A DNA stretch of 64,000 nucleotides from an uncultured bacterium. Lineage in GTDB: Bacteria > Omnitrophota > Gorgyraeia > Zapsychrales > Aceulaceae. Positions 14,073 through 62,168 of the stretch are shown in pieces. The position numbers and the translations under genes are program-made. The notes under the pieces were generated by a model. It saw nothing but the letters and a program-made list of their open reading frames with translations. It searched no databases and was not told the DNA's origin. The stretch spans positions 2,163-66,162 of the forward strand of contig CALGLP010000004.1 of assembly GCA_937930175.1 (NCBI GenBank), given 5' to 3'. Position 1 is the first letter of the stretch. Every line of letters starts with the position of its first letter.

Positions 14073-14196
14073 TCCGACGTTTTGATTGATAACTAGAAGT
14101 CGGAGTCCCGATCCCTGCAAAGCAGGGCGTCGGGACAGTTTTCAGCTCAAGGCGTAATGGAGATAAAGCTGTATTAGCATAGAACAAAGCAGGTGT

Positions 14197-14273: not shown

Positions 14274-14491
14274 GTTTTTAAATGAGTCCGCGATTTATGG
14301 AGCTTAAGCGACATAAATCGTATGGACGAATTTATTCCGCTTACCTGAGCGCAAGTGAAGGAAGCGGAGCTAAAAATACAGGGAATAAAGAATGGAAATC
14401 TCGCAGTCGTCCGTCAAAGAATTATTGGCGGACTCCTTGGGATAAATTCGGTTGGACGATTTGCGTTCCTCACTTCGTTCGTCTGTAAAAC

Positions 14492-16234
14492 GTGACCTCA
14501 TTTATGGATCAAAATTATTTAGATACTTTACGACATAGCTGTTCGCACATCATGGCCCAGGCTGTTAAAGAATTATGGCCTGAGGTCAAGGTGGCAATCG
14601 GTCCTTCGATTGAAAACGGATTTTATTATGATTTTGATAAAAAAGAGCCGTTTACTCCCGACGATCTCAAGGCCATCACCAAGCGTATGCGACAGATCAT
14701 TGAAAAAAAGCCTGAATTTAAACAGAGCCTTATGCCCAAAGACAAGGCCTTGGCTTTTTTTAAAGAACGCAATGAAAACTATAAAGTTGAAATCATTGAA
14801 GCGCTTTCGGATGAAAATGTTTCGATGTATCAAACAGGCGAAGGCTTTGTTGATTTATGCAAAGGTCCTCATGTTAAGCATGCTGGGGAGATCAAGGCCT
14901 TTGCGCTGTTGTCTACGGCTGGCGCATATTGGCGCGGGGATGAAAAGAACGCCATGCTCCAGCGCATTTATGGAACCTGTTTCCCGTCGGAAAAAGAACT
15001 TAAAGAGCATTTAAAGCTTTTAGAAGAAGCCCAAAAACGAGATCACCGCAAGCTTGGACCTCAACTTGATTTGTTTAATTTTTACCAGGATGAAGCTGGT
15101 GCCGGGCTTATTTTTTATCACCCCAATGGCGCCATGGTGCGCAGAATCATTGAAGACTACATCAAGGATGAAAACTTAAAGCGTGGTTATGAGCTTGTGA
15201 TGACACCGCATATGCTGAAGGGAAAACTTTGGGAAATTTCTGGGCACGCAGATCATTACCGAGAGAACATGTATTATTTTAAGGTCGATAGCGAAGAATA
15301 TGCGGTGAAGCCCATGAACTGTCCAGGGCACATTTTGATTTATAAGTCACGAATACACTCTTATCGCGAAATGCCGGTACGTTATTTTGAGTTGGGGACG
15401 GTTTATCGACAAGAGAAAGCCGGTGTGTTGCATGGACTTTTGCGTGTGCGTGGATTTACACAAGACGATGGACATATTTTCTGCCGCGAAGACCAAATTT
15501 GTGAGGAAGTCAAGAATGCTATTGATTTTGTCTTTGCCGTGATGAAAGATTTTGGATTTGAAAAAGCTGAAATTGAATTGAGTACGCAACCCGCCAAGTT
15601 TATCGGCTCCCAAGAAAACTGGGACACGGCGACGAAGGCTCTAGAGGATTCGCTCAAGGAAAAAAATATTGCGTATAAAATTAACCTTGGCGACGGTGCT
15701 TTTTATGGCCCCAAAATTGATATCAAGCTTAAAGATGCTCTTGGTCGTCTTTGGCAGTGTGCGACAATCCAATGCGATTTTGCCTTGCCAGAGCGTTTTC
15801 AAATGACCTATGTCAGCGAAGACGGCAAAGAGAAGCGACCGATCATGATTCATCGCGCGATTTTAGGAAGCTTTGAGCGATTTTTTGGTACGCTCGTTGA
15901 GCATTATGCCGGAGCTTTTCCTCTGTGGCTTGCGCCAGTTCAGATTTTGTTGATCCCTATTCGTGAAGAGCAGGTTCATTTTACAAAAGAAGTAAAAGAC
16001 ATTTTACAAAATCAAGGGTTTCGGGTTATAATGGACGCACGCAACGAGACCTTGGATAAACGGATTCGCGAAGGATCGTTAAAGAAAATCCCATACCTTG
16101 TGATTATTGGTGAAAAAGAAATGACACAGCGTACAGTGGCCCTTCGCAAGCGAGGCGTAGGCGATGGGGGTGTTTTATCTATCGACGATTTTGTTAAGCA
16201 ACTTCAACAAGAACAACACGATAAAACAGCATAA
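14492..16234 (+). CDS. thrS: Threonyl-tRNA synthetase (no N-terminal TGS domain)
   Basis: 580-aa ORF beginning near the editing-domain motif LRHSCSHIMAQAV. Class II motifs and the anticodon-binding domain are present. The start is GTG 14492 or ATG 14504. Confidence 0.95.
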   Translation: MTSFMDQNYLDTLRHSCSHIMAQAVKELWPEVKVAIGPSIENGFYYDFDKKEPFTPDDLKAITKRMRQIIEKKPEFKQSLMPKDKALAFFKERNENYKVEIIEALSDENVSMYQTGEGFVDLCKGPHVKHAGEIKAFALLSTAGAYWRGDEKNAMLQRIYGTCFPSEKELKEHLKLLEEAQKRDHRKLGPQLDLFNFYQDEAGAGLIFYHPNGAMVRRIIEDYIKDENLKRGYELVMTPHMLKGKLWEISGHADHYRENMYYFKVDSEEYAVKPMNCPGHILIYKSRIHSYREMPVRYFELGTVYRQEKAGVLHGLLRVRGFTQDDGHIFCREDQICEEVKNAIDFVFAVMKDFGFEKAEIELSTQPAKFIGSQENWDTATKALEDSLKEKNIAYKINLGDGAFYGPKIDIKLKDALGRLWQCATIQCDFALPERFQMTYVSEDGKEKRPIMIHRAILGSFERFFGTLVEHYAGAFPLWLAPVQILLIPIREEQVHFTKEVKDILQNQGFRVIMDARNETLDKRIREGSLKKIPYLVIIGEKEMTQRTVALRKRGVGDGGVLSIDDFVKQLQQEQHDKTA

Positions 16235-32082: not shown

Positions 32083-32156
32083 TGCCCTGTCGTCTAATGG
32101 TAGGACTCAAGATTCTGGATCTTGCTATCATGGTTCGAGTCCATGCGGGGCAGCCA
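32083..32156 (+). tRNA. tRNA-Gln (CUG)
   Basis: Acceptor TGCCCTG/CGGGGCA, anticodon stem CAAGA/TCTTG with loop TTCTGGA, and T arm CATGG-TTCGAGT-CCATG. CCA is encoded. Length 74 nt. Confidence 0.9.
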
Positions 32157-33833
32157 ACCTTGACGCTCAGGCGAACTTCGAGCGTTCGATACAGTAACAA
32201 GCGCCTTGCAGGCATCCCCTGCAGGGCGCTTGTCATTTTTAGGGGCTTTTTGGGTCTCCGGGGCGGGCAGGCTGCATGAAATGCTGTCAACGGTGGGCTG
32301 GTCTATATACATTTTGATTTCGATATAATCCTTGTAAACGACGATTTCCTTGATCATGGCTTGTATAAGGCTCTTCTGGGCTTCCGGAGGGGCCTTTTCG
32401 ATATATTGCATGGCAAACCTAAGGTTTGAGTGCAAGAATTGCCCCGAGCTTGCCGACATTTGAGCCACGTTCTTTTTAGCCTGCAGTTTTTCCAGCTCGT
32501 CTTCTAGCCTGACAATCTCCTCATCAAGCCTCGCCATCTTGTCCTTGTAAGTCTTCCCTTGCGATATCCTGTTGTCCATAGCCAGTTCAAGAAGCCTGTT
32601 CGCTTCCTGTTTGGTCTCTTCAAGTTTCTCCTGGAGAGGCTTCATCATTTTCTCAAGGGCCTCGAGTTTTATCTGGGAATCAAGGATTGCGTCTCCGATC
32701 GCCTTTACGATGATGTCCTGATCAGTAGATGCCCGCTTGAAATAATCGATAAGCGCCTCATCAAAGCCCCTGGCAGAGAACCTAGACACATCACAGCCTA
32801 ATTTCTGCTTGGACCTGCCGCATACATAATAAAAGAATTTCTCAGCTGCCTGGCCGTTGCCGCTTTCGCAGACATAGTGGCTTCCGCATTCGCCGCACTT
32901 AAGGAGCCCGGCTAAGAGGTAGATATACTCCGGGGTCTGTTTTATAAAGCGATGCCCGGGAAGTTTTGCGGTGAGGACCCGGTTTGCCTTTAACCATAAC
33001 TCTTCGTCCACAATAGCAGGATGAGTGCCTTTGTGGATCTCCTTGCCGTATTTTATATAACCCTTGTGAAATTGATTCTTTATAATCCAGGCAATGCTCT
33101 GCTTGCGCCAGACTTTACCCGTAGGAGTCTTTATGCCTCTGCGGATTAACTCCTGTCCGATATCATAAAGCGACTTGTTATTAGCGGCCATCTCCCAGAT
33201 AAAGCGCAGCTTATTTCCTGTTTCAGGATCGACAATAATTTTATGCGGCTGCCTGCCGTTTGGAAGAGGCGCGCCGTCTGGTATCAATTTATAACCGAAG
33301 GGCACGTTGCCACCAACCCACCTGCCTTGTCGCACCCTGGCAACGCAGGAGGCCTTCACGCGCTCGCCGATGAGCTCCCGCTCAAAAGCCGATAGAATAC
33401 CGAGTATGCCGATTACTACCCTGCCTATGGCAGTTGAGCTATCAAGGTTTTCGCGTACGGATACGAAAGCGATCTCTTTGGAGTTGAATAGATCAATAAG
33501 CCAGTAGAGGTCACGGGTATTGCGGGTTAAGCGGTCAAGACGGAAGAAGATTATTCCGTCAAACGCGGCAGTTTTTCTGCGCACGTGGTCAATAATCATC
33601 TGGATGCCGGGTCTGTTGAGATCCTTGCCGGAATAGCCGTCGTCTTTTACCACGCCTTTATTGCCTATATCGGCAAGCTCATGCCCGAACGCATCCAGCA
33701 GATTCCTGCAGTGGTAGGTCTGGGCATCCAGGGTAGTAAAATCTCCCTGGGCCTGGTCGTCGGTAGAGCAGCGCGTATATATAACGTAGCGTTTTTTCTT
33801 ACGGGTATTATCTGTTTTAACATTCATAGCCAT
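32094..33833 (-). CDS. Large serine recombinase (phage integrase)
   Basis: 579-aa ORF with the N-terminal resolvase domain YVIYTRCSTDDQ (catalytic Ser) and LDRLTRN, a recombinase domain, a zinc-ribbon region (CGECGSHYVCES...YYVCGR) and a coiled coil. The last ~60 codons run through the terminator and antisense to tRNA-Gln, so the true or functional 3' end is uncertain. Confidence 0.85.
   Translation of the reverse strand: MAMNVKTDNTRKKKRYVIYTRCSTDDQAQGDFTTLDAQTYHCRNLLDAFGHELADIGNKGVVKDDGYSGKDLNRPGIQMIIDHVRRKTAAFDGIIFFRLDRLTRNTRDLYWLIDLFNSKEIAFVSVRENLDSSTAIGRVVIGILGILSAFERELIGERVKASCVARVRQGRWVGGNVPFGYKLIPDGAPLPNGRQPHKIIVDPETGNKLRFIWEMAANNKSLYDIGQELIRRGIKTPTGKVWRKQSIAWIIKNQFHKGYIKYGKEIHKGTHPAIVDEELWLKANRVLTAKLPGHRFIKQTPEYIYLLAGLLKCGECGSHYVCESGNGQAAEKFFYYVCGRSKQKLGCDVSRFSARGFDEALIDYFKRASTDQDIIVKAIGDAILDSQIKLEALEKMMKPLQEKLEETKQEANRLLELAMDNRISQGKTYKDKMARLDEEIVRLEDELEKLQAKKNVAQMSASSGQFLHSNLRFAMQYIEKAPPEAQKSLIQAMIKEIVVYKDYIEIKMYIDQPTVDSISCSLPAPETQKAPKNDKRPAGDACKALVTVSNARSSPERQGWLPRMDSNHDSKIQNLESYH
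32197..32240 (+). terminator. Rho-independent terminator downstream of tRNA-Gln
   Basis: ACAAGCGCCTTGCAGG-CATCC-CCTGCAGGGCGCTTGT (16-bp stem with one G-U pair) followed by CATTTTT. It is T-rich only on the plus strand. Confidence 0.6.
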
Positions 33834-50251: not shown

Positions 50252-50586
50252 GCGATTTCACGTATTTGCCGGATTTTCTCATTGATGAGGCACTTGAATA
50301 TAAGACGATTGTTTCGGAGTTTGAAAACGGAGCAGAACAGAGGCGCCGTAAATGGGCAAACCCTCAGCGCAAATGGACGCTTAGGTTTAATAATAGGACT
50401 CATACAGAAATGACGGAGGTTTCAGACTTCTTTAAGAGCAAGTTTGGAGCATTCATGGCGTTTACCTGGACAAACCCGAATGATTTGGTTGAATACACCG
50501 TGCGTTTTGTTGAGGACAGCTTTCAGTTTAGCCGCAAGGCATACGGCGTGTATGATTTTGAATTTGAATTTATCGAGGTGAAATAA
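50248..50586 (+). CDS. Minor tail protein, lambda gpM-like
   Basis: 112-aa ORF directly after the tape measure gene. Size and order are as for gpM. Confidence 0.55.
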   Translation: MSDFTYLPDFLIDEALEYKTIVSEFENGAEQRRRKWANPQRKWTLRFNNRTHTEMTEVSDFFKSKFGAFMAFTWTNPNDLVEYTVRFVEDSFQFSRKAYGVYDFEFEFIEVK

Positions 50587-51197
50587 TGCCGCGAGAGACA
50601 GACAGCACATTTAAGCAAGAGAAAGCCAAGCGCCAGAATTCACCGATATTTTTGTATACGCTTGAAAAATATGACGGCGTAAATGACCTGCGCTTAGCGA
50701 GTTTTGACGAGGATGTAATTTATAACGGCGTTACTTATTCGCGGTTTCCTATAACCCATGAGTTTGTCGGCGAGAATAATCAAGGCCAGATTGACCAGGT
50801 TAAGGTGCGGCTTGCCAATGTCTCAAGGCTGATCCAGCTCTACTTAGAGCAATTTGATTTTAGGGGCAGGAAGGTAACTATTCGTATGGTCTGGCTGGAT
50901 CAGTTATCTGATCCGGATGCCTTTATGGATGATATTTTCTACATCGACAGTTATACGGCAGATCAAAATAACGTGGAGTTTACTCTGACAGGAAAGTTCG
51001 ATGTTCTCGGGGTAGATCTTCCGGCAAGGCGCTACTCGCGGAATTACTGCAGTTGGAAGTTTAAGTCGCCAGAGTGCGGATATTCAGGAGCTGAGCTTAC
51101 ATGCAACAAGACAAAACAGAGATGCAAACAGCTGGACAACTATCAGAGATTCGGGGCGTTTCCGTCGGTACCGGCAAGGCGCATCTACGTGATGTAG
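50586..51197 (+). CDS. Minor tail protein, lambda gpL / BR0599-family-like
   Basis: 203-aa ORF with the C-terminal Cys cluster CSWKFKSPECGYSGAELTCNKTKQRCKQLDNYQRFGAFP, typical of gpL-type Fe-S tail tip proteins. Confidence 0.65.
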   Translation: MPRETDSTFKQEKAKRQNSPIFLYTLEKYDGVNDLRLASFDEDVIYNGVTYSRFPITHEFVGENNQGQIDQVKVRLANVSRLIQLYLEQFDFRGRKVTIRMVWLDQLSDPDAFMDDIFYIDSYTADQNNVEFTLTGKFDVLGVDLPARRYSRNYCSWKFKSPECGYSGAELTCNKTKQRCKQLDNYQRFGAFPSVPARRIYVM

Positions 51198-51601
51198 AGC
51201 AATATATCATCGACAAGTATCTTGGGTTGCCGTATCGGCACAGGGGCCGGTCTTTAGAGGGGCTTGACTGCTGGGGTTTCCTAAAGTTTGTCTATGCTGA
51301 CTTAGGCGTGAGGCTGTTTGATATTGAAGAACTGGAATACAGCAAAATCTGGGGAGCGGAGGGAAAGGATTATTTTAAAGAGCATTACTTCCATGACTGG
51401 GCAAGCGTTAAGGCGCCCGAGATGCTTGACGGAGTACTGTTTGTTAATTCAAGAAGAATTGCCAATCACGCAGGAATAATCTTAAGCAGCGGAAGATTTA
51501 TTCATTGCGCAAGGCCGGGCGTGATTATCTCAAGGATAAATGATCTCTCCTGGCAGGCAAGGATAGAGGGATTTTACAGGTTAAAAGACAAGATATGCTG
51601 A
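51101..51601 (+). CDS. NlpC/P60-family tail-associated peptidase (gpK-like)
   Basis: GLDCWGFLKFVY (catalytic Cys) ... NHAGIIL ... FIHC. The start is uncertain, because the ORF-track start overlaps the previous gene by 97 nt. Confidence 0.65.
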   Translation: MQQDKTEMQTAGQLSEIRGVSVGTGKAHLRDVEQYIIDKYLGLPYRHRGRSLEGLDCWGFLKFVYADLGVRLFDIEELEYSKIWGAEGKDYFKEHYFHDWASVKAPEMLDGVLFVNSRRIANHAGIILSSGRFIHCARPGVIISRINDLSWQARIEGFYRLKDKIC

Positions 51602-54600
51602 CTATAAGGAACATAGACAATCCGTTTAAACTGGAAGAGGCTCAGGTTAAGGAGGTCCCTTACTCCCGTCATAAGACGCTTCAGGAAGTTTTAATTGAGT
51701 CCGGGTTTGATTACGAGAATAAGCGCATTATTGTCAGCGGCAAGCGCATCGAGAATTTATCAGCATATCTTGATAATGAAGACGAGGTTACTATTATCCC
51801 GGAAGTAAAAGCGCCGGTGGTTGCGATTATCTCTGCCATAGTATCGGCAGTATGGGCCGTGGCAGTGGCGCATCCGTTCTTATTTACTTTTTTCGTGCTC
51901 TCCATGGGTTATGCCATTTATCAGCATATGAACCAGCCTAAGATGCCGGATTTTAATTTAGGCTCGGCAACCGGCATGGATGAGGGGTCGCCTACCTACG
52001 GCTGGGATGGCGTGCAGACTATCCAGGAAGTAGGAGTGCCGGTGGCAGTTGTTTACGGAGAACACAGGATCGGCGGGAATATTATCAATCAATTCCTTTG
52101 GGAGGATGGAGATAGCCATTACTTAAATGTTCTGCTTGCGCTTTGCGAAGGAGAGATTGAGTCAATCGAGAGCATTGAAATAAATAACAATCCTATTGCT
52201 AACTTCGGAGGAGTGACGGTTTCAAAACGATACGGCGCAAACTTTCAGAGTCTTGTCAGCAACTTCGAAGACCTGCACAATCTTTATCCGGTTAATGCCA
52301 ATCTGGTTAAAAACAACCCTTATGTTTACACTACCGTGGATTTAGATGTGGAAGGGTTTGAGATTCACTTAAGGCTGAATAACGGGCTTTACCAGCAGAG
52401 CCAAGGATCCGGCGATATCCAAAGTTGGAGCGTAACTTACAAGGTTGAATACAAGCTCCATTCAGAAGGCACTTATATTAATTTAGGCGAGACGACCATT
52501 TCGGAAAAATCCCGCTCCACAGTGCGCAGGGTGTTTCGCAAAGTCGGTTTAGGGCCCGGGCAATACGATATCCGGATCACCCGCACCTCAGATGACAGTT
52601 CGCTTTCACCGCTTCGGCAGGGTGATTTAACCTTATTTCAGATAGATGAGCTTAAGACTGATGATCTAAGTTATCCAAACACAGCTTTATTGGGCCTGCA
52701 GCTTTTGGCCACAGACCAGCTTAACGGCGGAACCCCGAATGTTACAGCAGTTGTAAAGGGCAAGAAAGTTTTAGTGCCGGACATAAGAAACACCGGTGTG
52801 GCGGTTAGCTGGGAAGATTATTATTGGGATGGAGGCGACTATCGTCTTTTATGTGACGATACTTTGCTTGAATGGGACGGCATAACCTATGTCCAGAAAT
52901 TCTCAGCCAATCCGGTATGGTGCCTCAGGGATTTCATTGTCAACAATCGTTATGGGCTGGGCGAGTTTATTTTAACCTCGCATCTGGATAACGCCTCGCT
53001 ATTGGAAATGTCGCAGTATTGCGAAGAGAAAGTGGCTGACGGAAAAGGCGGCTTTGAGAAACGTTTCAGGCTCGATGTCGTGATTGACTCAAATAACAAG
53101 GCGCTCGATATTCTGATTCAGCTAAGTGCTGTGTTTAACGCTATGCCATTATACAGTGCAGGCGGGATATCGTTCAAAATAGATAAGCAAACGCTGCCGA
53201 CTCAGCTTTTCGGCATGGGAAATATCGTTAAAGATAGCTTTGTGCAGAGTTGGAAGACAATCAAAGAAGTGCCGAATGTGATTGAAGTGCAGTTTACAGA
53301 TAAAGAGAAAAATTACCGCCAGGAAACCATTGCTTACATCGATGAGGATGCATTGGCTAACGGCGAGCCGATGCGCAAGAGCCAGCTTCGCTTATTTACC
53401 ACTGGCGCAAGCTATGCTATCCGCGCAGCGCGCTATGCCTTAAAGGTTGCCAAATATATTAACCGCTCAATTGTTTTTAAGGCAGGCATTGACGCAGTTG
53501 CCTGCCAGGCGGGAGATATTATTTCTCTTTCGCATGATGTGCCGCAGTGGGGATTTTCGGGCAGGGTAAAGGACGACTCCACAACGATATTAATTAAGCT
53601 GGACCGGCCTATGATTATTGAAGACGGCAAGTCTTATAAGATACAAATCAGATTCTCTGATGATTCGATTGAGGAAAAATTAATAACCTCGCCAGCCGGG
53701 ACCTATACAGAAATCGCCTGCCAGGCATTCACAAATACGCCGCAGGATTTTGATGTCTATGCCATAGGCGAAACGAATAAGGTCAAAAAAGACTTTAGAG
53801 TTGTAGCGATTCAAAGAGAAGGCAAGAACGAGGTGCAGATTCAGGCCCTGGAATATAACGAAGCGGTTTATGACGATTCTGATATTATCCTGCCGCAGAA
53901 TAACTACTCTTCTTTATCAGGAGAAATTCCGCCCGTATCAAATCTTACGTTAACCGAATCCCTGGTTAAGAAGACTGACGGCACAATTGAAAACGCGATT
54001 GATGTTTGGTTTGACCGGCCGGTGTATGTCGACCACTATGTCAAGTCCTTTGCCAAGGCAAAAATATATTTAAGCGATGACGGCGGCTTAAGCTGGGGTG
54101 CAAGAGGCGAAACAACCGGCTCATATTTCCGCATTATCGGCGATATTGTTGACCGGCACACCTATAAGGTTAAAGTCACATCGCTTACAGATATGGATGA
54201 GGAAAGCTCTCTTGTGACAGCGCCTGAATCCTCAATTACTGTTGTGGGCAAATCTGCCCCGCCAAGCGATGTTTCGACTTTCTTGGTTAACCAGAACAGG
54301 GATCAAATTTATTTCGGCTGGAGCGAGATCCCGGATGTGGACGTTTGGGGATACGAAATCAGGCGCGGAGTAGACTGGGAAAGCGGAGAGGTAATAACAT
54401 TTCAGCAGGGAACACACTATCTTACTACGGGTCTTAAGAAAGGCATTGATCAGAAATTTTGGATCAAGGCAATTGATACTTCCGGTAACTATTCTGAAAA
54501 CCCTACAGAATCAGTCCTTACTGTAGGTGAGATCCCGTTTAGGAACGTAATTGCTGAATATCAGGAGCATCCATTATGGGAAGGCGTAAAGACAAATCTT

Positions 54601-55215
54601 GAGGTCAGTTTTGAGACGCTGGTAATTTCCGACGGATTCCTTTCCGGAGAATATGATACGCCTGTCCGGGATATCGGCTATGTGGCAGCTGCCTTTATTG
54701 AGATAGAGGCAATCGTTTCTCTGTCAACAGGCAGAAGGTTTAACAGCGACCCGGACGCACGGTTTAACGACAGCCTGTCTTACCGGTTTACCGGCCAAGA
54801 GACGCAGAATGTGGCCAATTTTAAGATACGGTTGTCCGAAGACAATATCAACTGGTCCGAGTGGGCAGATTATCAGCCGGGGGATTATTATTGTCGGTAC
54901 TTTCAGCTTAAGATGATTTTAACGCGCGCAAACCTGGGTGACTATGTGACGTGCTCAACCCTGCAATATCTTGCAGACCTTCCTGATGTGGATGATTTCG
55001 GAAGCGATGCAGTAGCGGACGCAAACGAGGGGAAAGAGGTATTTTTTACCAAAACTTATCACGAGGAGCCGAATGTGCATATTGAGATAACTTCCGGAGG
55101 AGGCGTTTATACGCAGTTTGTTGATAAGTCTACGACGAGTTTTAAGGTCAAGTTATTCAATGCTCAAGGTGCCGCGCAGACAGGTACTTTTGACTGGCAT
55201 AGCCATGGAGTTTAA
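51595..55215 (+). CDS. Host specificity / central tail fibre protein, lambda gpJ-like
   Basis: 1206-aa ORF following the M/L/K-like genes, with an N-terminal TM-like stretch and a large beta-rich body. Confidence 0.8.
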   Translation: MLTIRNIDNPFKLEEAQVKEVPYSRHKTLQEVLIESGFDYENKRIIVSGKRIENLSAYLDNEDEVTIIPEVKAPVVAIISAIVSAVWAVAVAHPFLFTFFVLSMGYAIYQHMNQPKMPDFNLGSATGMDEGSPTYGWDGVQTIQEVGVPVAVVYGEHRIGGNIINQFLWEDGDSHYLNVLLALCEGEIESIESIEINNNPIANFGGVTVSKRYGANFQSLVSNFEDLHNLYPVNANLVKNNPYVYTTVDLDVEGFEIHLRLNNGLYQQSQGSGDIQSWSVTYKVEYKLHSEGTYINLGETTISEKSRSTVRRVFRKVGLGPGQYDIRITRTSDDSSLSPLRQGDLTLFQIDELKTDDLSYPNTALLGLQLLATDQLNGGTPNVTAVVKGKKVLVPDIRNTGVAVSWEDYYWDGGDYRLLCDDTLLEWDGITYVQKFSANPVWCLRDFIVNNRYGLGEFILTSHLDNASLLEMSQYCEEKVADGKGGFEKRFRLDVVIDSNNKALDILIQLSAVFNAMPLYSAGGISFKIDKQTLPTQLFGMGNIVKDSFVQSWKTIKEVPNVIEVQFTDKEKNYRQETIAYIDEDALANGEPMRKSQLRLFTTGASYAIRAARYALKVAKYINRSIVFKAGIDAVACQAGDIISLSHDVPQWGFSGRVKDDSTTILIKLDRPMIIEDGKSYKIQIRFSDDSIEEKLITSPAGTYTEIACQAFTNTPQDFDVYAIGETNKVKKDFRVVAIQREGKNEVQIQALEYNEAVYDDSDIILPQNNYSSLSGEIPPVSNLTLTESLVKKTDGTIENAIDVWFDRPVYVDHYVKSFAKAKIYLSDDGGLSWGARGETTGSYFRIIGDIVDRHTYKVKVTSLTDMDEESSLVTAPESSITVVGKSAPPSDVSTFLVNQNRDQIYFGWSEIPDVDVWGYEIRRGVDWESGEVITFQQGTHYLTTGLKKGIDQKFWIKAIDTSGNYSENPTESVLTVGEIPFRNVIAEYQEHPLWEGVKTNLEVSFETLVISDGFLSGEYDTPVRDIGYVAAAFIEIEAIVSLSTGRRFNSDPDARFNDSLSYRFTGQETQNVANFKIRLSEDNINWSEWADYQPGDYYCRYFQLKMILTRANLGDYVTCSTLQYLADLPDVDDFGSDAVADANEGKEVFFTKTYHEEPNVHIEITSGGGVYTQFVDKSTTSFKVKLFNAQGAAQTGTFDWHSHGV

Positions 55216-55217
55216 GA

Positions 55218-55433
55218 ATGGGTAAGAAACTGATACCGAGTAAAGTGATTATCGAGTTTGATAACGGCGCTTTTGTAAGCGGCGTTATTCTTTATAAAGT
55301 AAATGACAGCGGTGAAATAAGCCGGGTAAAAACAATCGGGATTAAGAATGCTGATTTCAGCAAACCGCTACTTAACGGGCTGCTACAAAAGTTTATTAAG
55401 CATGCGGAAAGCGCGGAAGGAACTCAAGAATGA
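55218..55433 (+). CDS. Hypothetical protein
   Basis: 71-aa ORF tightly packed after the gpJ-like gene. Confidence 0.3.
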   Translation: MGKKLIPSKVIIEFDNGAFVSGVILYKVNDSGEISRVKTIGIKNADFSKPLLNGLLQKFIKHAESAEGTQE

Positions 55434-55708
55434 TTTGCTCAAGATGCAAGCAAGAGATCCCCAAAGACATGGCCTATGTGCTGATAAGGGGAAGCATTAT
55501 TTTGCGTACTCCCAAAAAGCGGCCTTTAGTCTTTACCTGCATTGAGCAGGCATTTAATTACGCGCAAGCCTTATTTATGCACGATGTCTGCTGGATTGAG
55601 ACTTTGCGGGAGTACGGGTTAGAGCTTTATGACATGAATAAGGTCGCAGAACAATATAAGAATATGGAGGTGTCCGATGGCTTGGGACAAGACAAAGCCG
55701 GAAAATGA
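55430..55708 (+). CDS. Hypothetical Cys-containing protein
   Basis: 92-aa ORF with an N-terminal CSRCK motif, overlapping its neighbours. Confidence 0.3.
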   Translation: MICSRCKQEIPKDMAYVLIRGSIILRTPKKRPLVFTCIEQAFNYAQALFMHDVCWIETLREYGLELYDMNKVAEQYKNMEVSDGLGQDKAGK

Positions 55709-56249
55709 CATGCTTTTAATTAACTTCCCGGCTGCCTGCAGGGCAAACTGGGAAGCCTTAGAGTTAGGCACGGACCCGAATCTTTTAATTACGAATGCCA
55801 AGGTAGCGCCCGGGGCCGGAATTGAAGACACAAAGCTGGCACAGATAGTCACGCCGAATAAGGTGAGCGGCGCAGCTTTGACCGGCCTGGCAAGCATACC
55901 TTCTGCAGCCGGGGTCCTGCCGGAGGCGAATTCTCCTAATAAGCTGAAAGCCGATGTCAGTGATACAACGCCGGAGTATTTAGACGGGCTTATCGATACT
56001 TTGGTGTTTCAGATTTCAGGAAGCGATAAGCTGCAGCTAAAAGACGGCGGAGTCGGCACTGAAAAGCTGGAAGGAGGCGCAGCTTCTCCGGGGAATAACA
56101 AATGTTACGGAACCAATGCAGGCGGTGCCAAGGGGTTTTATGAGACTATCCCTGTTCACCTTGATTCAGTTCAAGACGGCCAGGGATTAAGATATAGCAG
56201 CGCCAATTCAAGGTTTGAGAACGCGCCGCCCAGAGCGGTATACGCATAA
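55677..56249 (+). CDS. Tail-fibre-like protein
   Basis: 190-aa ORF with the N-terminus MAWDKTKPENDMLLINFPAACRANWEAL and repeated I..(T/A)KLA....KVSGAAL-type segments, as seen in phage fibre N-termini. This is recognition only. Confidence 0.4.
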   Translation: MAWDKTKPENDMLLINFPAACRANWEALELGTDPNLLITNAKVAPGAGIEDTKLAQIVTPNKVSGAALTGLASIPSAAGVLPEANSPNKLKADVSDTTPEYLDGLIDTLVFQISGSDKLQLKDGGVGTEKLEGGAASPGNNKCYGTNAGGAKGFYETIPVHLDSVQDGQGLRYSSANSRFENAPPRAVYA

Positions 56250-56258
56250 AGGAAACAC

Positions 56259-56834
56259 ATGGGAAATTATACAAGCGGGCCCCCGAAAAGCTCCGGAGGA
56301 AATCCAGTACCTACAACATGGACGGACGATCCATTAGTTCAGGATGTTACGCCTATTAAAAAGACGCACATTGTAGAGCTACGGGCTTGTTTAGAAGCCT
56401 TAGACGGCCATTATCATGTATTCAATGGGAACAATTCAAACGCGGAAGTGCCGGATGTATCTGTGGCATGGGCAGAATCAAATGCGCAGCTTATTGTGGA
56501 TGAAACGCCGCCGAAGGCATCGCATACTAATGAGGTTATAAATTTTATCAAGGCCTTTAATGGTCACTACCATTATGTGCCAGCATACAGCATTAATTCC
56601 AACGCCTTTGCGCCCGGTTTTGCTTTTGAGGACGACCCGGTTACAGCGCTTGTTACATGGATCAAGGCATCGGCTCACGAACAATTAAGAAGCCATTTAG
56701 AAAGCTTGGCAGGGCATACGCATATAGTCTGCTGTGAATGCGAATGCACCTGCACTTGTACCTGCACGTGTACTTGTACCTGCACCTGCACCTGCCAGGA
56801 GCAGTGCTGCAGCGAATGCGATTGCGGAGATTAA
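56259..56834 (+). CDS. Fibre-module protein with three His-rich helical repeats and a 16-Cys C-terminal tail containing (Thr-Cys)x8
   Basis: 191-aa ORF ending HIVCCECECTCTCTCTCTCTCTCTCQEQCCSECDCGD. There are three copies of a ~20-residue K..H..EL(R)..LE.L.GH.H unit. Its stop lies 1 nt before the radical SAM gene ATG. Confidence 0.6.
   Translation: MGNYTSGPPKSSGGNPVPTTWTDDPLVQDVTPIKKTHIVELRACLEALDGHYHVFNGNNSNAEVPDVSVAWAESNAQLIVDETPPKASHTNEVINFIKAFNGHYHYVPAYSINSNAFAPGFAFEDDPVTALVTWIKASAHEQLRSHLESLAGHTHIVCCECECTCTCTCTCTCTCTCTCQEQCCSECDCGD
56748..56795 (+). repeat. Imperfect hexanucleotide tandem repeat (ACN-TGY)x8 encoding (Thr-Cys)x8
   Basis: acc tgc act tgt acc tgc acg tgt act tgt acc tgc acc tgc acc tgc. 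Confidence 0.9.
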
Positions 56835-56835
56835 A

Positions 56836-58122
56836 ATGAAGCCAAAATCTGCCTATATTTTTGTGACTAATAAATGCAACCTGCGCTGTAAATATTGCTA
56901 TGAAGAAAACCGCACCGGAGATATGACACCGGAAACTATGGTTGCGGCCATAGACTGGCTGGTAAGCCATTATGAAAAAGAAATGTTTGCCCGGCCTTTT
57001 GAAAGCCTGACCTTTACATTCTTTGGCGGAGAACCGCTTCTTAATTTTCCGACAGTCAGGGCTGGTATAGATTACCTGCGGGGCATATGCGATAAGCTTA
57101 ATTTTAAGGCAGGAATCCACATTTTATCAAACGGGACGGTATTTACAGATGAGATGACAGAGTATTTTAAGAACATTCGTCAATACAATAATTTCAACTG
57201 GCACTTTCAGGTGTCATTGGACGGCTGCGAGGAAACGCACAACGCTAACAGGGTATTTGCCAATGATGAGGGAAGCTATAAGGTTATTTCAGAAAACATA
57301 AAAAAGATCAGGGAAATTTTCAAAAGCGTAGGCGTGCGCATGACCGTTACGCCGGAGAATATAAAATCACTTTCAAAAGATTTTGAGGCTTTGCTTTCTT
57401 TTGGCACGCCTGTGACTAACCTTACGCCTATTGTAGAAGGCGACTGGAATGATGAGGTGATCGGCACATTCATAGATGAGCTTAAAAAATGCATTGAGCT
57501 GTATTACCGAAAAGGCCATAACCAGTATTTTAATTATCTGCACCATTCTTTGGAGAGGATAGTGGACAATTCATTTAACCGGCAGAAGGGCTGCAGGGCA
57601 GGGGAATTCTTGATAGGTATTTCAACTGAGGGCAAGATCTATCCTTGCCACAGATTTGTCGCCTATTCTAAGAAAGATGACTTTTGCCTGGGCGATGTCT
57701 GGAAAGGTATAGACGAAAACGGCGAGGCGTTTAAGAAAATAAAAGAAATGCGTCAGAGGGCAGTTAAGTGTTTAAACTGCAAGGTGTTTTCCTGTAACAG
57801 GTGTTTTGCAACAAATATGTACTTGAATCAGGATCCCGCGGCGATTCCCGACAACGGGTACTGCGAAATGAACGAAAAGATATCAAGCGCCTTGCGGCCG
57901 ATAATAAGGAGGTTGTTTGTGGAAGGAAAATTACCGCTTAAAGAAGGCGAAATGGCAGATCTAAAAGATAATGGTGTTATGTATAAGATAAGTAAAGACG
58001 AGCCTGCGGAGCTTGTAGAGGACAAGTTAGATGTAATGGCCCGCTGTATGATCCGCGTGGTGAAAGAACTGCAAGAGGTAAAGTCAGCGCTGTCTTTGCT
58101 TGCATCGAGGCATAAGGATTAA
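56836..58122 (+). CDS. Radical SAM enzyme with C-terminal SPASM-type auxiliary Fe-S domain (peptide-maturase/anSME-like)
   Basis: 428 aa from ATG 56836, with a GGAG RBS 6 nt upstream. Motifs: CNLRCKYC (CX3CX2C, 56875-56898), FFGGEPLL, and a C-terminal Cys cluster GCRAGE...YPCHRF...CLNCKVFSCNRCFATN...GYCEMN. Confidence 0.8.
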   Translation: MKPKSAYIFVTNKCNLRCKYCYEENRTGDMTPETMVAAIDWLVSHYEKEMFARPFESLTFTFFGGEPLLNFPTVRAGIDYLRGICDKLNFKAGIHILSNGTVFTDEMTEYFKNIRQYNNFNWHFQVSLDGCEETHNANRVFANDEGSYKVISENIKKIREIFKSVGVRMTVTPENIKSLSKDFEALLSFGTPVTNLTPIVEGDWNDEVIGTFIDELKKCIELYYRKGHNQYFNYLHHSLERIVDNSFNRQKGCRAGEFLIGISTEGKIYPCHRFVAYSKKDDFCLGDVWKGIDENGEAFKKIKEMRQRAVKCLNCKVFSCNRCFATNMYLNQDPAAIPDNGYCEMNEKISSALRPIIRRLFVEGKLPLKEGEMADLKDNGVMYKISKDEPAELVEDKLDVMARCMIRVVKELQEVKSALSLLASRHKD

Positions 58123-58125
58123 GCT

Positions 58126-59478
58126 ATGAAGTATTTATGCATCGTTCCATATGAATATACCACTATAACGATGATGTACCGGAATTCTCCGGTCGGCATC
58201 TATAAGGTTGCCACAAAACTGCGCAGAGAAGGCCATACTGTAGAGCTTTTTAACATGTACCCTCTTTACCGCCCGAGAAAGTTTATGGAGAATAAGCCGG
58301 GCGCGATGTATTTCAAGGGCATACCTGTATCTCAATTTATCGGTTATAAGAAGTGCGGTAATTTCGAGAACGAGAAATTATGCAGGGAGTTTCACAGGCT
58401 GGGACTGCCAATATCAGAACTTACGAAAAAGTTAGAGGAGTTTCAGCCTGACAGGATATTTGTTGGCAATACCTTTACTTTTCTCTGGAGGGCAGTTTAT
58501 GAGATCGTAGCCGAATGCAAAAAGACGATGCCTAAGGTTCCGGTAAAGGTCGGCGGGCTATATGCTATTCTTTGTCCGGATCATGCTGCAGCATCGGGTG
58601 CCGACGAAGTCATGACCCTGGAAGAAAAGACTACGAGCGATAACTTTATCAAAATAGATACGGATTTATTCGGTGATAACCTTCCAGAGAGGATATTTTT
58701 AGGGACCTCGGTAGGCTGCCCCAATCATTGCTCATATTGCGCTGTTCATATTGTAGAGGGCTGCACAAAGGTAAACACCAGCCCGGATGAAGTAGTAAGC
58801 GAGCTTAAGTATTATAAATCAATGGGAATAAGCAGGTTTATTTTTCTCGACGCCAATATCCTCTATGGATACGAGAATCATTTTAAAGTTATTCTCGATA
58901 AGGTTATCCAGGAAAACTTAAATATAGAGCTTTATTCCTACGGAGGAGTAGAGGCGCGCCTATTGACCGATGATATTGCAGAAAAGATGGTTAGTGCCGG
59001 GTTTCGTTCGGTGAATATTCCTATTGAGAGCGCAAGCGACATTATTATTAAAGAATGGAAGAGGAATTGCTTTGTTGCCGACTGGGAACAGGCGATGAAT
59101 GTTGCTAAGAGGCATTTTCAGCGTCTGCGTTCTTTCCTGATTATCGGCGCGCCGAATCAGACCGCAGAAGATATTAAGTCAACCATTGACCTGATTAAAA
59201 GCTACGGTGCAGAGGCGGTAACTCTGCCGTATACGCCGATTCCAGGTACTCCTGATTACGAGAAGTATAAGCATATCGATTTGGAGGACCTTAACCCGGC
59301 CTTTTATCCCTGCGCGCATGAGCGGATGAAAGCAGCTGATTTAGAAAAGTTTTACTCTGAAAACCGGAATGTCAGGTTTTGCTTAAGAGATTGGGATGAT
59401 GCTCAACAGAAAATACCGCCGCCCACAAAGACGATATTTGAAAGCGGACCGGCAGTAAAAACTAAAGGAGGGGATTAG
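58126..59478 (+). CDS. Radical SAM enzyme with N-terminal B12-binding-like (class B) domain
   Basis: 450-aa ORF with an N-terminal Rossmann-like segment (LCIVP...SPVGIYKVATKLRREGHTVELFNM) and a CPNHCSYC CX3CX2C motif (58717-58740). It starts 3 nt after the previous stop. Confidence 0.7.
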   Translation: MKYLCIVPYEYTTITMMYRNSPVGIYKVATKLRREGHTVELFNMYPLYRPRKFMENKPGAMYFKGIPVSQFIGYKKCGNFENEKLCREFHRLGLPISELTKKLEEFQPDRIFVGNTFTFLWRAVYEIVAECKKTMPKVPVKVGGLYAILCPDHAAASGADEVMTLEEKTTSDNFIKIDTDLFGDNLPERIFLGTSVGCPNHCSYCAVHIVEGCTKVNTSPDEVVSELKYYKSMGISRFIFLDANILYGYENHFKVILDKVIQENLNIELYSYGGVEARLLTDDIAEKMVSAGFRSVNIPIESASDIIIKEWKRNCFVADWEQAMNVAKRHFQRLRSFLIIGAPNQTAEDIKSTIDLIKSYGAEAVTLPYTPIPGTPDYEKYKHIDLEDLNPAFYPCAHERMKAADLEKFYSENRNVRFCLRDWDDAQQKIPPPTKTIFESGPAVKTKGGD

Positions 59479-59480
59479 CT

Positions 59481-59771
59481 ATGGGAAAGGTCATCAATCA
59501 CGAGGAGATAATTGTTGACGATATTGTAAAGAGCTTAACACCGTCGGTTTACGACCCGGGCAGCGGTGTGCCAGCCTCTTTTGCGCTTATTCACGCGGAA
59601 GGCGGGCCGATGAGATATTTCGTTAACGGGCAAAATCCTGCGCCGTCGTCCGGGGCACTTTTAGAGGATGGAGATATTGTAGAGCTTCCGTCAATTTATC
59701 ACATAAAGGATTTTAGGGTGGTTAAATCCGGGGATGATTCAGGAAAAATTACAGTAACTTATGAAGCATAA
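59481..59771 (+). CDS. Hypothetical small protein coupled to the radical SAM genes
   Basis: 96-aa ORF starting 2 nt after the previous stop, with a GGAGG RBS. Confidence 0.35.
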   Translation: MGKVINHEEIIVDDIVKSLTPSVYDPGSGVPASFALIHAEGGPMRYFVNGQNPAPSSGALLEDGDIVELPSIYHIKDFRVVKSGDDSGKITVTYEA

Positions 59772-59785
59772 AGGAGGCGTTAAGA

Positions 59786-60340
59786 ATGCAGCTGCATCTT
59801 AAACATCGCAAAGCAAGCAGAATAATTAAGCGGGTTACAGAAATAACTACAGATGGCGGGCTTCCAAAGACAGGCCAGACTATGATTTATCAGCCTGGAG
59901 ATGACGGGTCCTATCAGATGGGGTATCCGATAGGCGGCGTTCAAAGGTTTATTGACAACGGCGACGGAACAATAATCGATATGGCGACAGGCCTTATGTG
60001 GATAAAAGATCCTCAGGCAGCAGGTTTAAGGTCCTCTATGTATTGGTATGACGCAATCAATGCCTGCGAGAATTTGGATTATGCAGGCCACGATGATTGG
60101 CGGATGCCGAACATTAACGAGCTCTTGTCAATTGTGGATCATTCAAGGTATGATCCGGCATTCGATCTGATGTATTTTATACCATTCCCGGATACATGGA
60201 CGCCTAATTGGTCGTCAACCGTTTGTGCGCCTTGGCTGGACGGGGCCTGGTGTATGTATCCGTATGATGGTTACAAAACAGTCTGGAGCAGAATTAGTGA
60301 TATGTGTTTTGTGCGGCCTGTCAGAGGCGGTCAATCTTAA
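59786..60340 (+). CDS. DUF1566 (Lcl C-terminal domain)-like protein
   Basis: TGQT..YQPGDDG...FIDNGDGTIIDMATGLMWIKD...W.DAINACENLDYAGHDDWRMPNINELLSIVD matches the DUF1566 signature. Confidence 0.65.
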   Translation: MQLHLKHRKASRIIKRVTEITTDGGLPKTGQTMIYQPGDDGSYQMGYPIGGVQRFIDNGDGTIIDMATGLMWIKDPQAAGLRSSMYWYDAINACENLDYAGHDDWRMPNINELLSIVDHSRYDPAFDLMYFIPFPDTWTPNWSSTVCAPWLDGAWCMYPYDGYKTVWSRISDMCFVRPVRGGQS

Positions 60341-60354
60341 AAGGGGAGGCGAAA

Positions 60355-61471: not shown

Positions 61472-61523
61472 TTGACAGAACAAAAATTGAATGGTATATT
61501 TTAATTGTGAACACCAGTTCACA
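61472..61523 (+). promoter_or_regulatory. Promoter plus palindromic operator upstream of the TetR gene
   Basis: TTGACA (61472-61477), a 17-nt spacer, TATATT (61495-61500), then the perfect inverted repeat TGTGAAC-ACCA-GTTCACA (61506-61523). Confidence 0.6.
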
Positions 61524-61550
61524 AATTAGATGGTATTCATGGGGGTATAG

Positions 61551-62168
61551 ATGAGTGTATTAAACAGGAAAGAAAGAGATAGGCAGTTGCGCAGATCCGA
61601 TATTCTCAGGGCCGCAGAGCATATATTTGCTTTAAAAGGGTACCACAAAGCGACAATAAGAGATATCGCAAAGGAAGCCCAATATGGAACTGGCACGGTT
61701 TATCTGCATTTTAAGAATAAGCATGCTCTTTATTTTGCTTTACTTGAAGAAAAGTTAAAGCACTTATTATCTATAATTAAAGAGAAGACCGGGCAGGTGA
61801 AAGATGCAAGAAAGAAGCTGGAGATTTTTATACTGGAAGGATTGACTTTCTTCGAGGAGAATCAGGATTTCTTTCAGATATTTGCTTCGGACTCCGAGGG
61901 AAGTGAATTATATGCAGAAGCGAGAGTCTTTAAATCTCCCATAGGCTTACAATTGCAAGAATACACAGCGAGCGTGCTTAAGGAAGCGCAAAGCCAGGAG
62001 GTTATTAGTAGCAGTTTTGACTTGGAACAGCTCTGCGATGTGTTTACGTCTCTTTTAAAGACGATTACTCTCAAATGGTTACAAAGAAAGGAGGGGAAGG
62101 GCGAAAATTTAGTTGGCCTATCTGAGGTAGTTCTTAAGTTGTTTCTGTACGGTGCCGCAAATAAATAA
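61551..62168 (+). CDS. TetR/AcrR-family transcriptional regulator
   Basis: 205-aa ORF with an N-terminal HTH (ILRAAEHIFALKGYHKATIRDIAKEAQYGTGTVYLHFKNKHALY). Confidence 0.85.
   Translation: MSVLNRKERDRQLRRSDILRAAEHIFALKGYHKATIRDIAKEAQYGTGTVYLHFKNKHALYFALLEEKLKHLLSIIKEKTGQVKDARKKLEIFILEGLTFFEENQDFFQIFASDSEGSELYAEARVFKSPIGLQLQEYTASVLKEAQSQEVISSSFDLEQLCDVFTSLLKTITLKWLQRKEGKGENLVGLSEVVLKLFLYGAANK

Follow-up and report, generated by a model that had tools for sequence, protein, structure and literature searches.

Why would a prophage encode, among its tail genes, a protein that ends in a run of alternating cysteines, and place directly behind it the genes of two radical S-adenosylmethionine (SAM) enzymes? 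The question is posed by a 64,000-nucleotide stretch of DNA from an uncultured Omnitrophota bacterium (contig CALGLP010000004.1 of assembly GCA_937930175.1; "the window" below means this whole stretch), in which a 191-residue open reading frame (ORF), here called the Cys-tail gene, is followed by the genes of a SPASM-type and a B12-type radical SAM enzyme, the three together forming the core of what we call the cassette. A first-pass annotation of the window had proposed that the Cys-rich end of this protein is the substrate of both adjacent enzymes, a proposal that is supported, at the level of sequence, by gene linkage, reverse searches, co-variation and the affinities of the enzymes. We lean, somewhat beyond even chances, towards the view that the cassette is a phage-encoded system for the post-translational maturation of a protein that belongs to the distal tail or fibre module.

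The Cys-tail protein (C-terminal end HIVCCECECTCTCTCTCTCTCTCTCQEQCCSECDCGD) contains 17 Cys, of which 16 lie within its last 34 residues, as first counted, and one within the first 157. This density is unique in the window, where one of the 386 ORFs of at least 40 residues has at least eight Cys in any 30 residues; an antisense ORF at 56662-57120 is an artefact that mirrors the repeated codons. The stop codon of the gene (TAA, 56832-56834) is separated by a single nucleotide from the ATG of the SPASM gene at 56836, which is preceded at a distance of 7 nucleotides by GGAG. The SPASM gene (56836-58122) is followed after 3 nucleotides by the second radical SAM gene (58126-59478), and this in turn after 2 nucleotides by a 96-residue ORF (59481-59771), such that the gaps of 1, 3 and 2 nucleotides noted in the first-pass annotation are borne out by the coordinates. 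No terminator-like sites were found in the gaps separating the cassette genes, all of which lie on one strand. The mechanical ORF list begins the SPASM gene at an upstream GTG (56734); the ATG at 56836 is backed by alignments of homologues.

Loci related to the cassette were drawn from exact-protein look-ups, IMG/VR, GTDB genomes and JGI metagenomes and were scored by tblastn with the window proteins, which left a set of 49 after the removal of duplicates. Both the SPASM and the B12-type enzyme are encoded near the Cys-tail gene at 37 of the 49, six show one enzyme before the contig ends, and six, with at most 877 nucleotides of downstream sequence, show none. Each of these 12 incomplete loci has less than 1.3 kb downstream and is ended by its contig; hence, no counter-example (a tail gene without the enzymes on an informative contig) was found among the 49 loci, all 37 informative ones being linked down to ~32% identity. 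Apparent counter-examples in which one or both enzymes are missing (L134, L135, L142 and L146) all turned out to be truncated contigs, and L135 and L142, two of the six loci that show no enzyme, run on into the same aldo-keto reductase gene that L003, a related locus, has ahead of its enzymes. The reverse searches gave the same picture: every viral contig with a SPASM relative of at least 32% identity has a tail gene, as do all ten of the viral contigs found with a profile of the B12-type enzyme. Thus neither the tail without the enzymes nor the enzymes without the tail, the two patterns that the first-pass annotation had said would speak against it, turned up in the 49 loci and the reverse searches. 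The order of the genes varies, being SPASM-tail-B12 in L020, and including two interposed sugar-type genes, an interposed 235-residue ORF and two additional radical SAM genes in L003. Since the linkage is kept despite this varied order, it points to selection on linkage rather than to shared ancestry of one operon. We consider it very likely that the tail gene is functionally coupled to both enzymes.

Phages are known to carry other radical SAM genes (QueE-like and viperin-like), and weak matches to these were seen here, which gives some footing to the notion that the adjacency is coincidental and that the enzymes are auxiliary metabolic or nucleotide-modifying genes. We give this notion almost no credence: it is contradicted by the linkage of all informative loci at such divergence and with rearranged gene orders, by enzyme matches that are best to peptide maturases, and by the joint exchange of the tail end and both enzymes, which is displayed by the recombinant locus L119. 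The backbone of L119 has 66-73% nucleotide identity to the window at 50302-56796 and 59578-60349, and no homology to L119 is detectable over window positions 56797-59577, i.e., the distal end of the tail plus both enzyme genes. The L119 tail ends in ...HCDCTCTCTCRCEPEM (type B) and not in the ...QEQCCSECDCGD (type A) of the window, and its enzymes are only 31-34% identical to those of the window. From this recombinant it follows that the tail end and both enzymes have been inherited as one unit. Furthermore, for pairs of loci whose N-terminal domains (N-domains) are 60-75% identical, the identity of the SPASM enzymes averages 62.6% (range 50-82) where the tail ends are of the same type and 35.1% (range 32-39) where they differ, and the identity of the B12-type enzymes follows the tail-end type likewise. 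In these sequences, the lineage of the enzymes follows the distal-end type of the tail and not the N-domain or the phage backbone.

By a word-indexed search, 46 homologues of the 191-residue protein were recovered (174-207 residues, down to 31% identity), which have 6-17 Cys each, restricted to the tail. All 46 keep the tail, down to the same 31% identity; full-length members have it in the form CCECEC(XC)n, with C159, E162, C163, C165 and C167 invariant. Taken over 50 distinct tails, the median content is 13 Cys per 32 residues, and the X of C-X-C is Thr in 51%, Glu in 21%, Gln in 11% and Asp in 5% of cases (89% for the four together). Of these, Thr, Glu and Asp are well documented as acceptors in the thioethers of ranthipeptides or QhpC. 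The (TC)n run differs among close relatives, which have (TC)8 or (TC)6 (L015, L019, L115 and L116), the differences being in-frame multiples. The idea that (TC)n is a hypermutable contingency locus was set aside, given that the DNA repeat is codon-degenerate (80% matches) and that its length changes are in-frame multiples. One relative, L016, has a Cys-to-Ser change and a stop-loss extension that may be a sequencing error.

The first of the two enzymes has been correctly described as a radical SAM protein with a SPASM-like domain: it contains the motif CNLRCKYC, passes PF04055 (53.2 bits against a cut-off of 29.5) and possesses the full SPASM set of seven C-terminal Cys (CX9-15GX4C, CX2CX5CX3C and a last C, which serve two auxiliary [4Fe-4S] clusters in that subfamily); this set, together with C131, is invariant among orthologues of only 32-45% identity. 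The spacing of the middle block (CX2CX4CX2C) is a slight variant of CX2CX5CX3C, and PF13186 is matched over its full length at 20.2 bits (cut-off 21.5, E 7e-4). Among NCBIfam models, the best match is the ranthipeptide maturase PapB (NF047865, 211 bits, cut-off 340) and the second-best a nif11-type maturase (146 bits, cut-off 518.7); further matches are the CXXX-repeat target maturase (TIGR04115, 145 bits, cut-off 350), QhpD (TIGR03906, 129.5 bits, cut-off 453), the SCIFF maturase (TIGR03974, 127 bits, cut-off 425) and the anaerobic sulfatase maturase (anSME; TIGR03942, 61.4 bits, cut-off 349), along with weak matches to HxsB (95.6 against 370) and HxsC (49.5 against 268). Its score under the PapB cut-off marks the enzyme as related to that family but as a clade of its own. 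Among solved structures the closest is CteB (5WGG, E 1.2e-24), to which the alignment begins at CteB residue 98; hence, the window enzyme is without the N-terminal domain that serves CteB as its RiPP recognition element (RRE; RiPP, a peptide made by the ribosome and modified after translation), and no PqqD-like match was found in any cassette ORF. It has instead a C-terminal extension of ~80 residues. In one lineage (L001, L002 and L005) an intein (Intein_splicing plus LAGLIDADG) splits the SPASM gene right after the CX3CX2C motif. Inteins typically persist in genes that an element cannot lose, and for this reason we count the intein as support. The intein-bearing genes lie at L001:8556-10880, L002:3985-6309 and L005:2161-4488, and in them homology to the window enzyme restarts at residue 21.

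The second enzyme was likewise rightly read as a radical SAM protein with an N-terminal B12-binding-like domain. Its motif CPNHCSYC has three invariant Cys (C198, C202 and C205), PF04055 is passed at 75.3 bits (cut-off 29.5), and the N-terminus has a conserved Rossmann-like region, ILxINPP...GG.Y, which matches PF02310 at a sub-threshold 23.6-26.5 bits (cut-off 32.1). Its NCBIfam matches are weak and scattered over class B enzymes. The closest solved structure is 9CCB (E 3.3e-10, covering the radical SAM half), which is QCMT, a cobalamin-dependent glutamine C-methyltransferase that modifies a protein substrate, methyl-coenzyme M reductase (PMC12931638). QCMT and other class B enzymes share with the window enzyme a radical SAM core and, as far as the sub-threshold match goes, an N-terminal Rossmann/B12-like domain, and QCMT modifies a residue within a protein; the likeness is nevertheless limited to that E value and to the radical SAM half, and the score for TIGR04014 is 54 bits against a cut-off of 360. 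The second enzyme is probably a C-methyltransferase, and thioether formation has also been proposed for a B12 radical SAM enzyme (PMC12931638). Overall, neither enzyme clusters with the families that act on sulfatases, nucleotides or cofactors, the best matches being to thioether maturases of Cys peptides, and no sulfatase was matched among the scanned cassette ORFs and distal-tail neighbours.

Does the tail need such enzymes at all? CxC and CC motifs typify metal-thiolate proteins, the strict period of two would place all thiols on one face of a strand, and HxH motifs, of which the N-domain has three, bind iron in T4 gp37 and P2 gpV-type proteins. The tail and the six His might accordingly be primarily a metal- or Fe-S-binding device (metallothionein-like, or a CxC analogue of HxH sites), with enzymes that build no thioether ladder but convert a few residues (for instance Cys to formylglycine, or by methylation) or help to load a metal centre; that the anSME model also matches the SPASM enzyme (61 bits) fits such a role. 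We consider this unlikely, as the enzyme is most strongly similar to thioether maturases and not to anSME (211 against 61 bits), as 89% of the X positions are T, E, Q or D, with Thr, Glu and Asp known as thioether acceptors and needless for simple metal binding, and as distant relatives of the Cys tail with three to five radical SAM genes each imply heavy covalent chemistry.

The known substrates of radical SAM/SPASM cross-linking are small secreted peptides and very few proteins (QhpC and HxsA). PapB makes Cys-Asp/Glu thioethers and the SCIFF maturase CteB makes Cys-Thr thioethers. The ranthipeptide/SCIFF maturases (PapB with freyrasin, CteB with thermocellin) resemble the window system in their radical SAM core plus SPASM domain, in two sets of auxiliary-cluster Cys and in the Cys-rich nature of their substrates, and the acceptor residue types Thr, Asp and Glu alternate with Cys in the window tail too. 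The differences are as follows: CteB has an N-terminal RRE, whereas the window enzyme has none and bears a C-terminal extension; the ranthipeptide/SCIFF substrate is a ~45-residue peptide with a leader and not the tail of a folded 191-residue protein; the Cys spacing is CX3D or CX4T rather than C-X-C; and only the window system is phage-encoded within a tail module and paired with a B12-type radical SAM enzyme. QhpD and its substrate QhpC are alike in that several Cys-to-Asp/Glu thioethers are introduced by a SPASM enzyme into a protein subunit that stays within a larger assembly, but QhpC, a subunit of a periplasmic enzyme, carries three cross-links and a quinone cofactor, and has no repeat tail, phage context or B12 partner. 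The CXXX-repeat target maturase family (TIGR04115) also pairs a SPASM maturase with Cys-periodic repeats, with a period of four against two here; no paper describing this family was found in the full-text literature, where the accession is mentioned in a single paper, unrelated to phages. Judged by sequence comparison, the mechanism looks like ranthipeptide/QhpC-type Cys cross-linking combined with a class B modification. At the same time, the system misses the curated threshold of every named family tested and is different in substrate type, recognition mode, Cys periodicity and context. The C-X-C spacing is, to our knowledge, the tightest Cys periodicity reported.

What, then, is the tail attached to? 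The 191-residue protein has no model match in Pfam, NCBIfam, PHROG or PADLOC and no tblastn match among 50,697 GenBank phage records. Its N-domain contains three copies of the unit [WF]xDDP..T.IK..H..ELR..L..L.GHxH, an internal repeat with alignment z-scores of 11-12.5 against shuffled sequences, and R42, H51, H53, H103, H105, R144, H153 and H155 are invariant in the family. AlphaFold2 run with the family alignment gives a predicted local distance difference test score (pLDDT) above 90 for residues 1-160, with three helices that are each followed by an HxH strand; the N-domain is thus confidently predicted, as a model, to adopt a pseudo-threefold beta-alpha repeat fold, to which fold comparison returned no solved structural homologue. 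A profile search of 1.84 billion representative proteins retrieved 16 clusters at E<1e-30 that make up the full-length family, every member of which has three HxH motifs and a Cys tail. A further 2,761 proteins at E<=0.001 have the repeat unit alone, mostly as two to four copies at the C-termini of multidomain proteins whose partner domains are typically extracellular (Ig, fn3, subtilase, cohesin and RHS). These wider repeat proteins are mostly without HxH and without Cys tails, which makes the HxH triplet and the Cys tail specific additions of the radical-SAM-linked family. Pfam scans of ten such proteins and of the window protein give no family over the ~35-residue unit [WY]TDP..T.[IV][KR]..H[IV].ELR.A[VI] (P0052-P0185), which appears to be an uncharacterised widespread module.

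HxH iron sites lie at the threefold axis of tail-tip proteins such as the T4 gp37 needle and the apex of P2 gpV and phi92 gp138. The N-domain may be compared with these fibre and spike sites and with PAAR caps in that a pseudo-threefold monomer could, by analogy with PAAR, cap a trimer; it is different in that no sequence or fold similarity is found and in that the three HxH motifs here come from one chain.

A large recognition domain in front of a modified C-terminus could also be read as a classical RiPP with a giant leader, in which the 157-residue N-domain serves for recognition (as in Nif11 and NHLP leaders) and a modified, Cys-rich core of 33 residues is freed at lysis as a bioactive or metal-binding peptide. 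The second-best NCBIfam match of the SPASM enzyme is to a nif11-like peptide maturase, the modifications would be concentrated in a C-terminal "core", and, for an enzyme without an RRE, a large domain could serve recognition. We nonetheless judge this distinctly unlikely, because no protease, C39-ABC exporter or GG/GA-type cleavage motif is called in cassettes of the lineages examined, because invariant HxH triplets on a confident globular fold exceed what a leader needs, and because the cassette is regularly embedded in blocks of baseplate and fibre genes. The first-pass view that the precursor is not a small leader-core peptide agrees with the lack of an RRE in the enzyme and of a called protease or exporter in the cassettes examined.

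The setting of the cassette is indeed a recurrent one. Its loci span the tail, baseplate and fibre modules of sipho- and myoviruses, i.e., of unrelated phage types, in at least four distinct lineages. In the window, the cassette comes after the gene of a gpJ-like protein, an assignment of the first-pass annotation that is upheld by PF24801 and PF13550, and after a fibre-like gene; the gpJ-like gene is also found upstream in close relatives and marks the start of the distal tail module. On the 133-kb contig L003 the cassette follows baseplate genes (PAAR, gp25, gp6-like and P2-I-like), in L005 a phage tail Collar domain is encoded by the gene upstream of it, and on the 114-kb contig L020 Baseplate_J is nearby and "virion structural protein" PHROGs lie on both sides; the myovirus-type contigs with the cassette are 113-133 kb in length. 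None of the cassettes examined has a gene called as a protease, exporter, RRE or immunity-type gene.

Defence genes are often found close to the tail genes of prophages, and the cassette might be an accessory defence or superinfection-exclusion system akin to the His-Xaa-Ser (HXS) system. The HXS effector blocks incoming phage DNA. In HXS, two radical SAM enzymes, one of them with a SPASM domain, mature a short-period repeat in a protein effector (HxsA, by HxsB and HxsC; PMC13128918), which is a parallel in architecture, and the HxsB and HxsC models weakly match the SPASM enzyme, at the 95.6 and 49.5 bits given above. These scores are far under their cut-offs of 370 and 268, no HxsD match was found, the cassette ORFs match only radical SAM models in NCBIfam, and PADLOC returns generic radical SAM matches alone and none for the substrate. 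Moreover, HxsA is an exported host defence effector, whereas the N-terminus of the 191-residue protein (MGNYTSGPPKSSGGNPV...) has no hydrophobic signal-like segment; the repeat is H-x-S and not C-x; and the second enzyme here is B12-type. The cassette also matches the G+C content of the phage, is tightly coupled to structural genes, and turns up again, flanked by baseplate and structural genes, on myovirus-type contigs of 113-133 kb. A defence role of this kind is in our view very unlikely, and of the HXS precedent cited in the first-pass annotation the architectural likeness stands while family membership does not. In the full-text literature we found no description of a radical-SAM-modified phage tail protein, in agreement with the earlier statement that none was known, and HXS was the only architectural precedent found.

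Returning to the maturation of a tail-module protein, the cassette might work as follows. The six His of the three HxH motifs would, by analogy with the tail-tip sites, form a metal site on the pseudo-threefold axis, from which the strictly alternating Cys-X tail of ~32 residues would leave directly. The SPASM enzyme, as it is without an RRE, would probably dock on the folded N-domain and/or on the invariant CCECEC entry motif; it would then abstract hydrogen from the X residues (Thr, Glu, Gln and Asp) and join them to neighbouring Cys sulfurs, so that the tail would become a ladder of thioether rings analogous to CteB, PapB, ranthipeptide and QhpD/QhpC chemistry. The B12-type enzyme would subsequently add a second modification, most likely C-methylation, or a further cross-link. 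The product would stay on the N-domain and act as an intact protein of the adsorption apparatus, forming a rigid tip or anchor that withstands proteases and redox changes and possibly binds metal. Thioether chemistry on the tail we hold to be fairly probable, and a role of the Cys-tail protein in the virion we rate as probable to the same degree. The full proposal is more tentative and, in our estimate, falls a little short of even: that phages of anaerobes, with radical SAM enzymes of their own, turn the Cys-X tail of a pseudo-threefold, HxH-metal-capped tail-tip protein into a laddered (thioether-bridged and methylated) needle or anchor, so that a structural protein of the virion would undergo RiPP chemistry, and that this is one branch of a large unrecognised class of phage SPASM and Cys-repeat (CXC, CXXX and CNCNY) proteins of 130-960 residues in gut and environmental viromes.

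Several observations weigh against this reading. The modification and its type are predicted here from genes, and the tail is left unpredicted by AlphaFold2 (pLDDT <55). Since the SPASM enzyme scores under the cut-off of every named maturase, another Cys chemistry (formylglycine or a different cross-link) is possible, and since the PF02310 match is sub-threshold, the cobalamin dependence of the second enzyme is putative. The pairs used for co-variation are phylogenetically non-independent. Incorporation into the virion is proposed from gene position, in a part of the genome where phages also place moron and defence genes, and the 191-residue protein has no PHROG, Pfam or fold homology to structural families. 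Finally, the N-domain repeat is widespread among ordinary extracellular proteins of bacteria that have neither a Cys tail nor a radical SAM gene beside them, hence the N-domain itself is not phage-specific.

How far does the association extend beyond the window family? A total of 171 SPASM relatives were found in IMG/VR. Distant relatives (24-35% identity) occur in 68 viral contigs, and 32 of the 68 have a same-strand Cys-dense ORF within 1.5 kb. These neighbours are proteins of 130-960 residues and include CQxxCQxx (CXXX) repeats in proteins of 270-960 residues, CNCNYxCTC arrays and CDCDxC arrays (examples in the table); PHROGs assigned no function to them. The Cys-repeat proteins of L037 and L101 begin with the same H..ELR unit as the window N-domain, and L037 is matched by the window SPASM enzyme at 31% identity (tblastn). 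From these sequences, it appears that the window family belongs, as a single branch, to a far larger class associated with phages, of which we found no description in the literature. Two shorter relatives of the Cys-tail protein are P0091, with two repeat units and a CxC tail, which lies beside three radical SAM genes (L147:161-4215), and P0081, with three HxH motifs and a CxxxC-type tail, which lies beside five (L148:3070-8981), together with a gene of a PTL_trimer-domain protein. Upstream of the cassette in L001, a second, unrelated Cys-rich protein of 255 residues (14 Cys, ending in ...SWSDWSCKCNPYTWTT) is followed by three more radical SAM genes (L001:3136-7275). Campylobacter phage CP220, a cultured myovirus, has a distant radical SAM relative that is flanked by a "tail fiber attachment catalyst" gene on one side and by baseplate genes on the other (L150; NC_027997.1, 164742-165911). 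For the distant SPASM matches in CP220-like Campylobacter phages and in Phass-1, no annotated neighbour, judged from annotations only, suggests a Cys-repeat substrate.

If the reading is true, viruses apply radical SAM/SPASM cross-linking to proteins of their own adsorption apparatus, and the folded Cys-tail protein, recognised without an RRE, represents a new substrate class. It would also offer peptide and protein engineers a natural scaffold in which as many as 16 Cys within 34 residues can be cross-linked, as well as a testable reason for the recurrence of SPASM genes in viral contigs, and a first functional handle on the prophages of Omnitrophota (Ca. Velamenicoccus).

Table. Coordinates of the cassette and of the genes around it in the window, with Cys-dense neighbours of distant SPASM relatives on other contigs
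Feature	Position	Strand	Evidence or remark
gpJ-like tip attachment / host-specificity protein	51595-55215	+	PF24801 FNIII-A_GpJ 1.2e-20; PF13550 Phage-tail_3 1.3e-12
190-residue fibre-like protein directly upstream of the Cys-tail gene	55677-56249	+	syntenic in every close relative; ends ...PRAVYA
Cys-tail protein, proposed substrate, 191 residues	56259-56834	+	46 homologues of 174-207 residues, all tailed
N-terminal domain, residues 1-157	56259-56729	+	three ~35-residue beta-alpha repeats (repeat units within 56319-56729)
HxH motif 1, H51-Y-H53	56409-56417	+	invariant in family alignments
HxH motif 2, H103-Y-H105	56565-56573	+	invariant
HxH motif 3, H153-T-H155	56715-56723	+	invariant; 2 residues ahead of the first tail Cys
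Cys-X tail, residues 158-191, 16 Cys	56730-56831	+	CCECEC + (TC)8 + QEQCCSECDCGD
Imperfect TGCACC hexanucleotide array encoding (CT)n	56745-56795	+	8.5 copies, 80% matches
Radical SAM/SPASM enzyme, 428 residues, proposed Cys cross-linking maturase	56836-58122	+	PF04055 53.2 bits
CX3CX2C radical SAM cluster motif of the SPASM enzyme (C14, C18, C21)	56875-56898	+	invariant in orthologues
SPASM auxiliary-cluster cysteines	57592-57864	+	C253-x12-G-x4-C271, C312xxC315xxxxC320xxC323, C343 (plus C131 upstream), invariant
Second radical SAM enzyme, 450 residues, N-terminal B12-binding-like Rossmann domain	58126-59478	+	PF04055 75.3 bits
96-residue ORF, tightly coupled	59481-59771	+	no family match
Lcl_C/DUF1566-domain protein, 184 residues, candidate adhesin or receptor-binding protein	59786-60340	+	PF07603 2.9e-25
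Cys-dense neighbour ORFs, examples (among L037-L104)	L047:7334-8359, L068:7334-8554, L096:3044-5923, L088:6602-8956, L078:3557-5719, L039:8281-8889, L101:8420-8971, L053:5519-5920		

The element that carries the cassette is a lambda-like siphovirus prophage that spans ~32.1-61.5 kb of the window and also encodes a gpA terminase and a lambda-type portal. At one boundary, a tRNA-Gln (32083-32156) overlaps the gene of a large serine recombinase (32094-33833, minus strand) at its 3' end; on the other side (61472-61551), the strongest promoter-like site of the region, at 61472, is followed by a host TetR gene and a TolC-like gene. No attachment-site (att) direct repeats of at least 12 nucleotides were found between the two prophage ends, which is consistent with a large serine recombinase. 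The G+C content does not vary between cassette and phage. As host we have an Omnitrophota bacterium that is related to Candidatus Velamenicoccus archaeovorus LiM, the closest genome, in which the same gene block holds a copy of the 191-residue protein that is 94% identical; metagenome-assembled genomes of Omnitrophota hold a second cassette lineage.

Pfam, NCBIfam, PHROG and PADLOC give no match for the 190-residue protein upstream of the Cys-tail gene. Downstream, the 96-residue ORF is kept only in lineages of Omnitrophota prophages (at least 66% identity) and is absent from distant lineages, which puts it outside the universal core of the cassette. The Lcl_C/DUF1566 gene is syntenic with it and is the next downstream gene with a family match. 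The "lysis-like" identity given earlier to downstream genes was not confirmed, as they have no Pfam or PHROG matches.

A few features of the neighbouring genes deserve mention. Between the tail gene and the SPASM gene of L003 lie an aldo-keto reductase gene and a DegT-like fragment, and two radical SAM genes come after the B12-type enzyme (L003:8637-10138 and 13590-15528); these extra genes hint at a further modification, possibly sugar-related. The fibre-like genes directly upstream of the Cys-tail gene in several lineages share a C-terminal ...(P)RAVYA or ...AKYA (window 55677-56249, L017:6950-7990, L135:145-1074 and the upstream ORF of L134), and small downstream proteins of other lineages end in ...GYAVYAA; going by sequence, the shared ...RAVYA/...AKYA ending could be a docking motif. 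A set of small zinc-ribbon proteins with CPxC (61-186 residues) is encoded, in the second Omnitrophota lineage, between the B12-type enzyme and the homologue of the 96-residue ORF (L017:10944-12309). The zinc-ribbon proteins have similar ...VK.Y.V.A.YE... C-termini, and L146 has one directly after the tail gene (L146:490-816). Three uncultivated viral genomes of IMG/VR (L007, L009 and L018) end at the stop codon of the Cys tail or one nucleotide past it, and metagenome contigs with the same gene sequence (L136 and L107) extend into radical SAM genes; it seems that the trimming of proviruses at gene boundaries discards the enzymes as "host", which would hide the association in viral databases.

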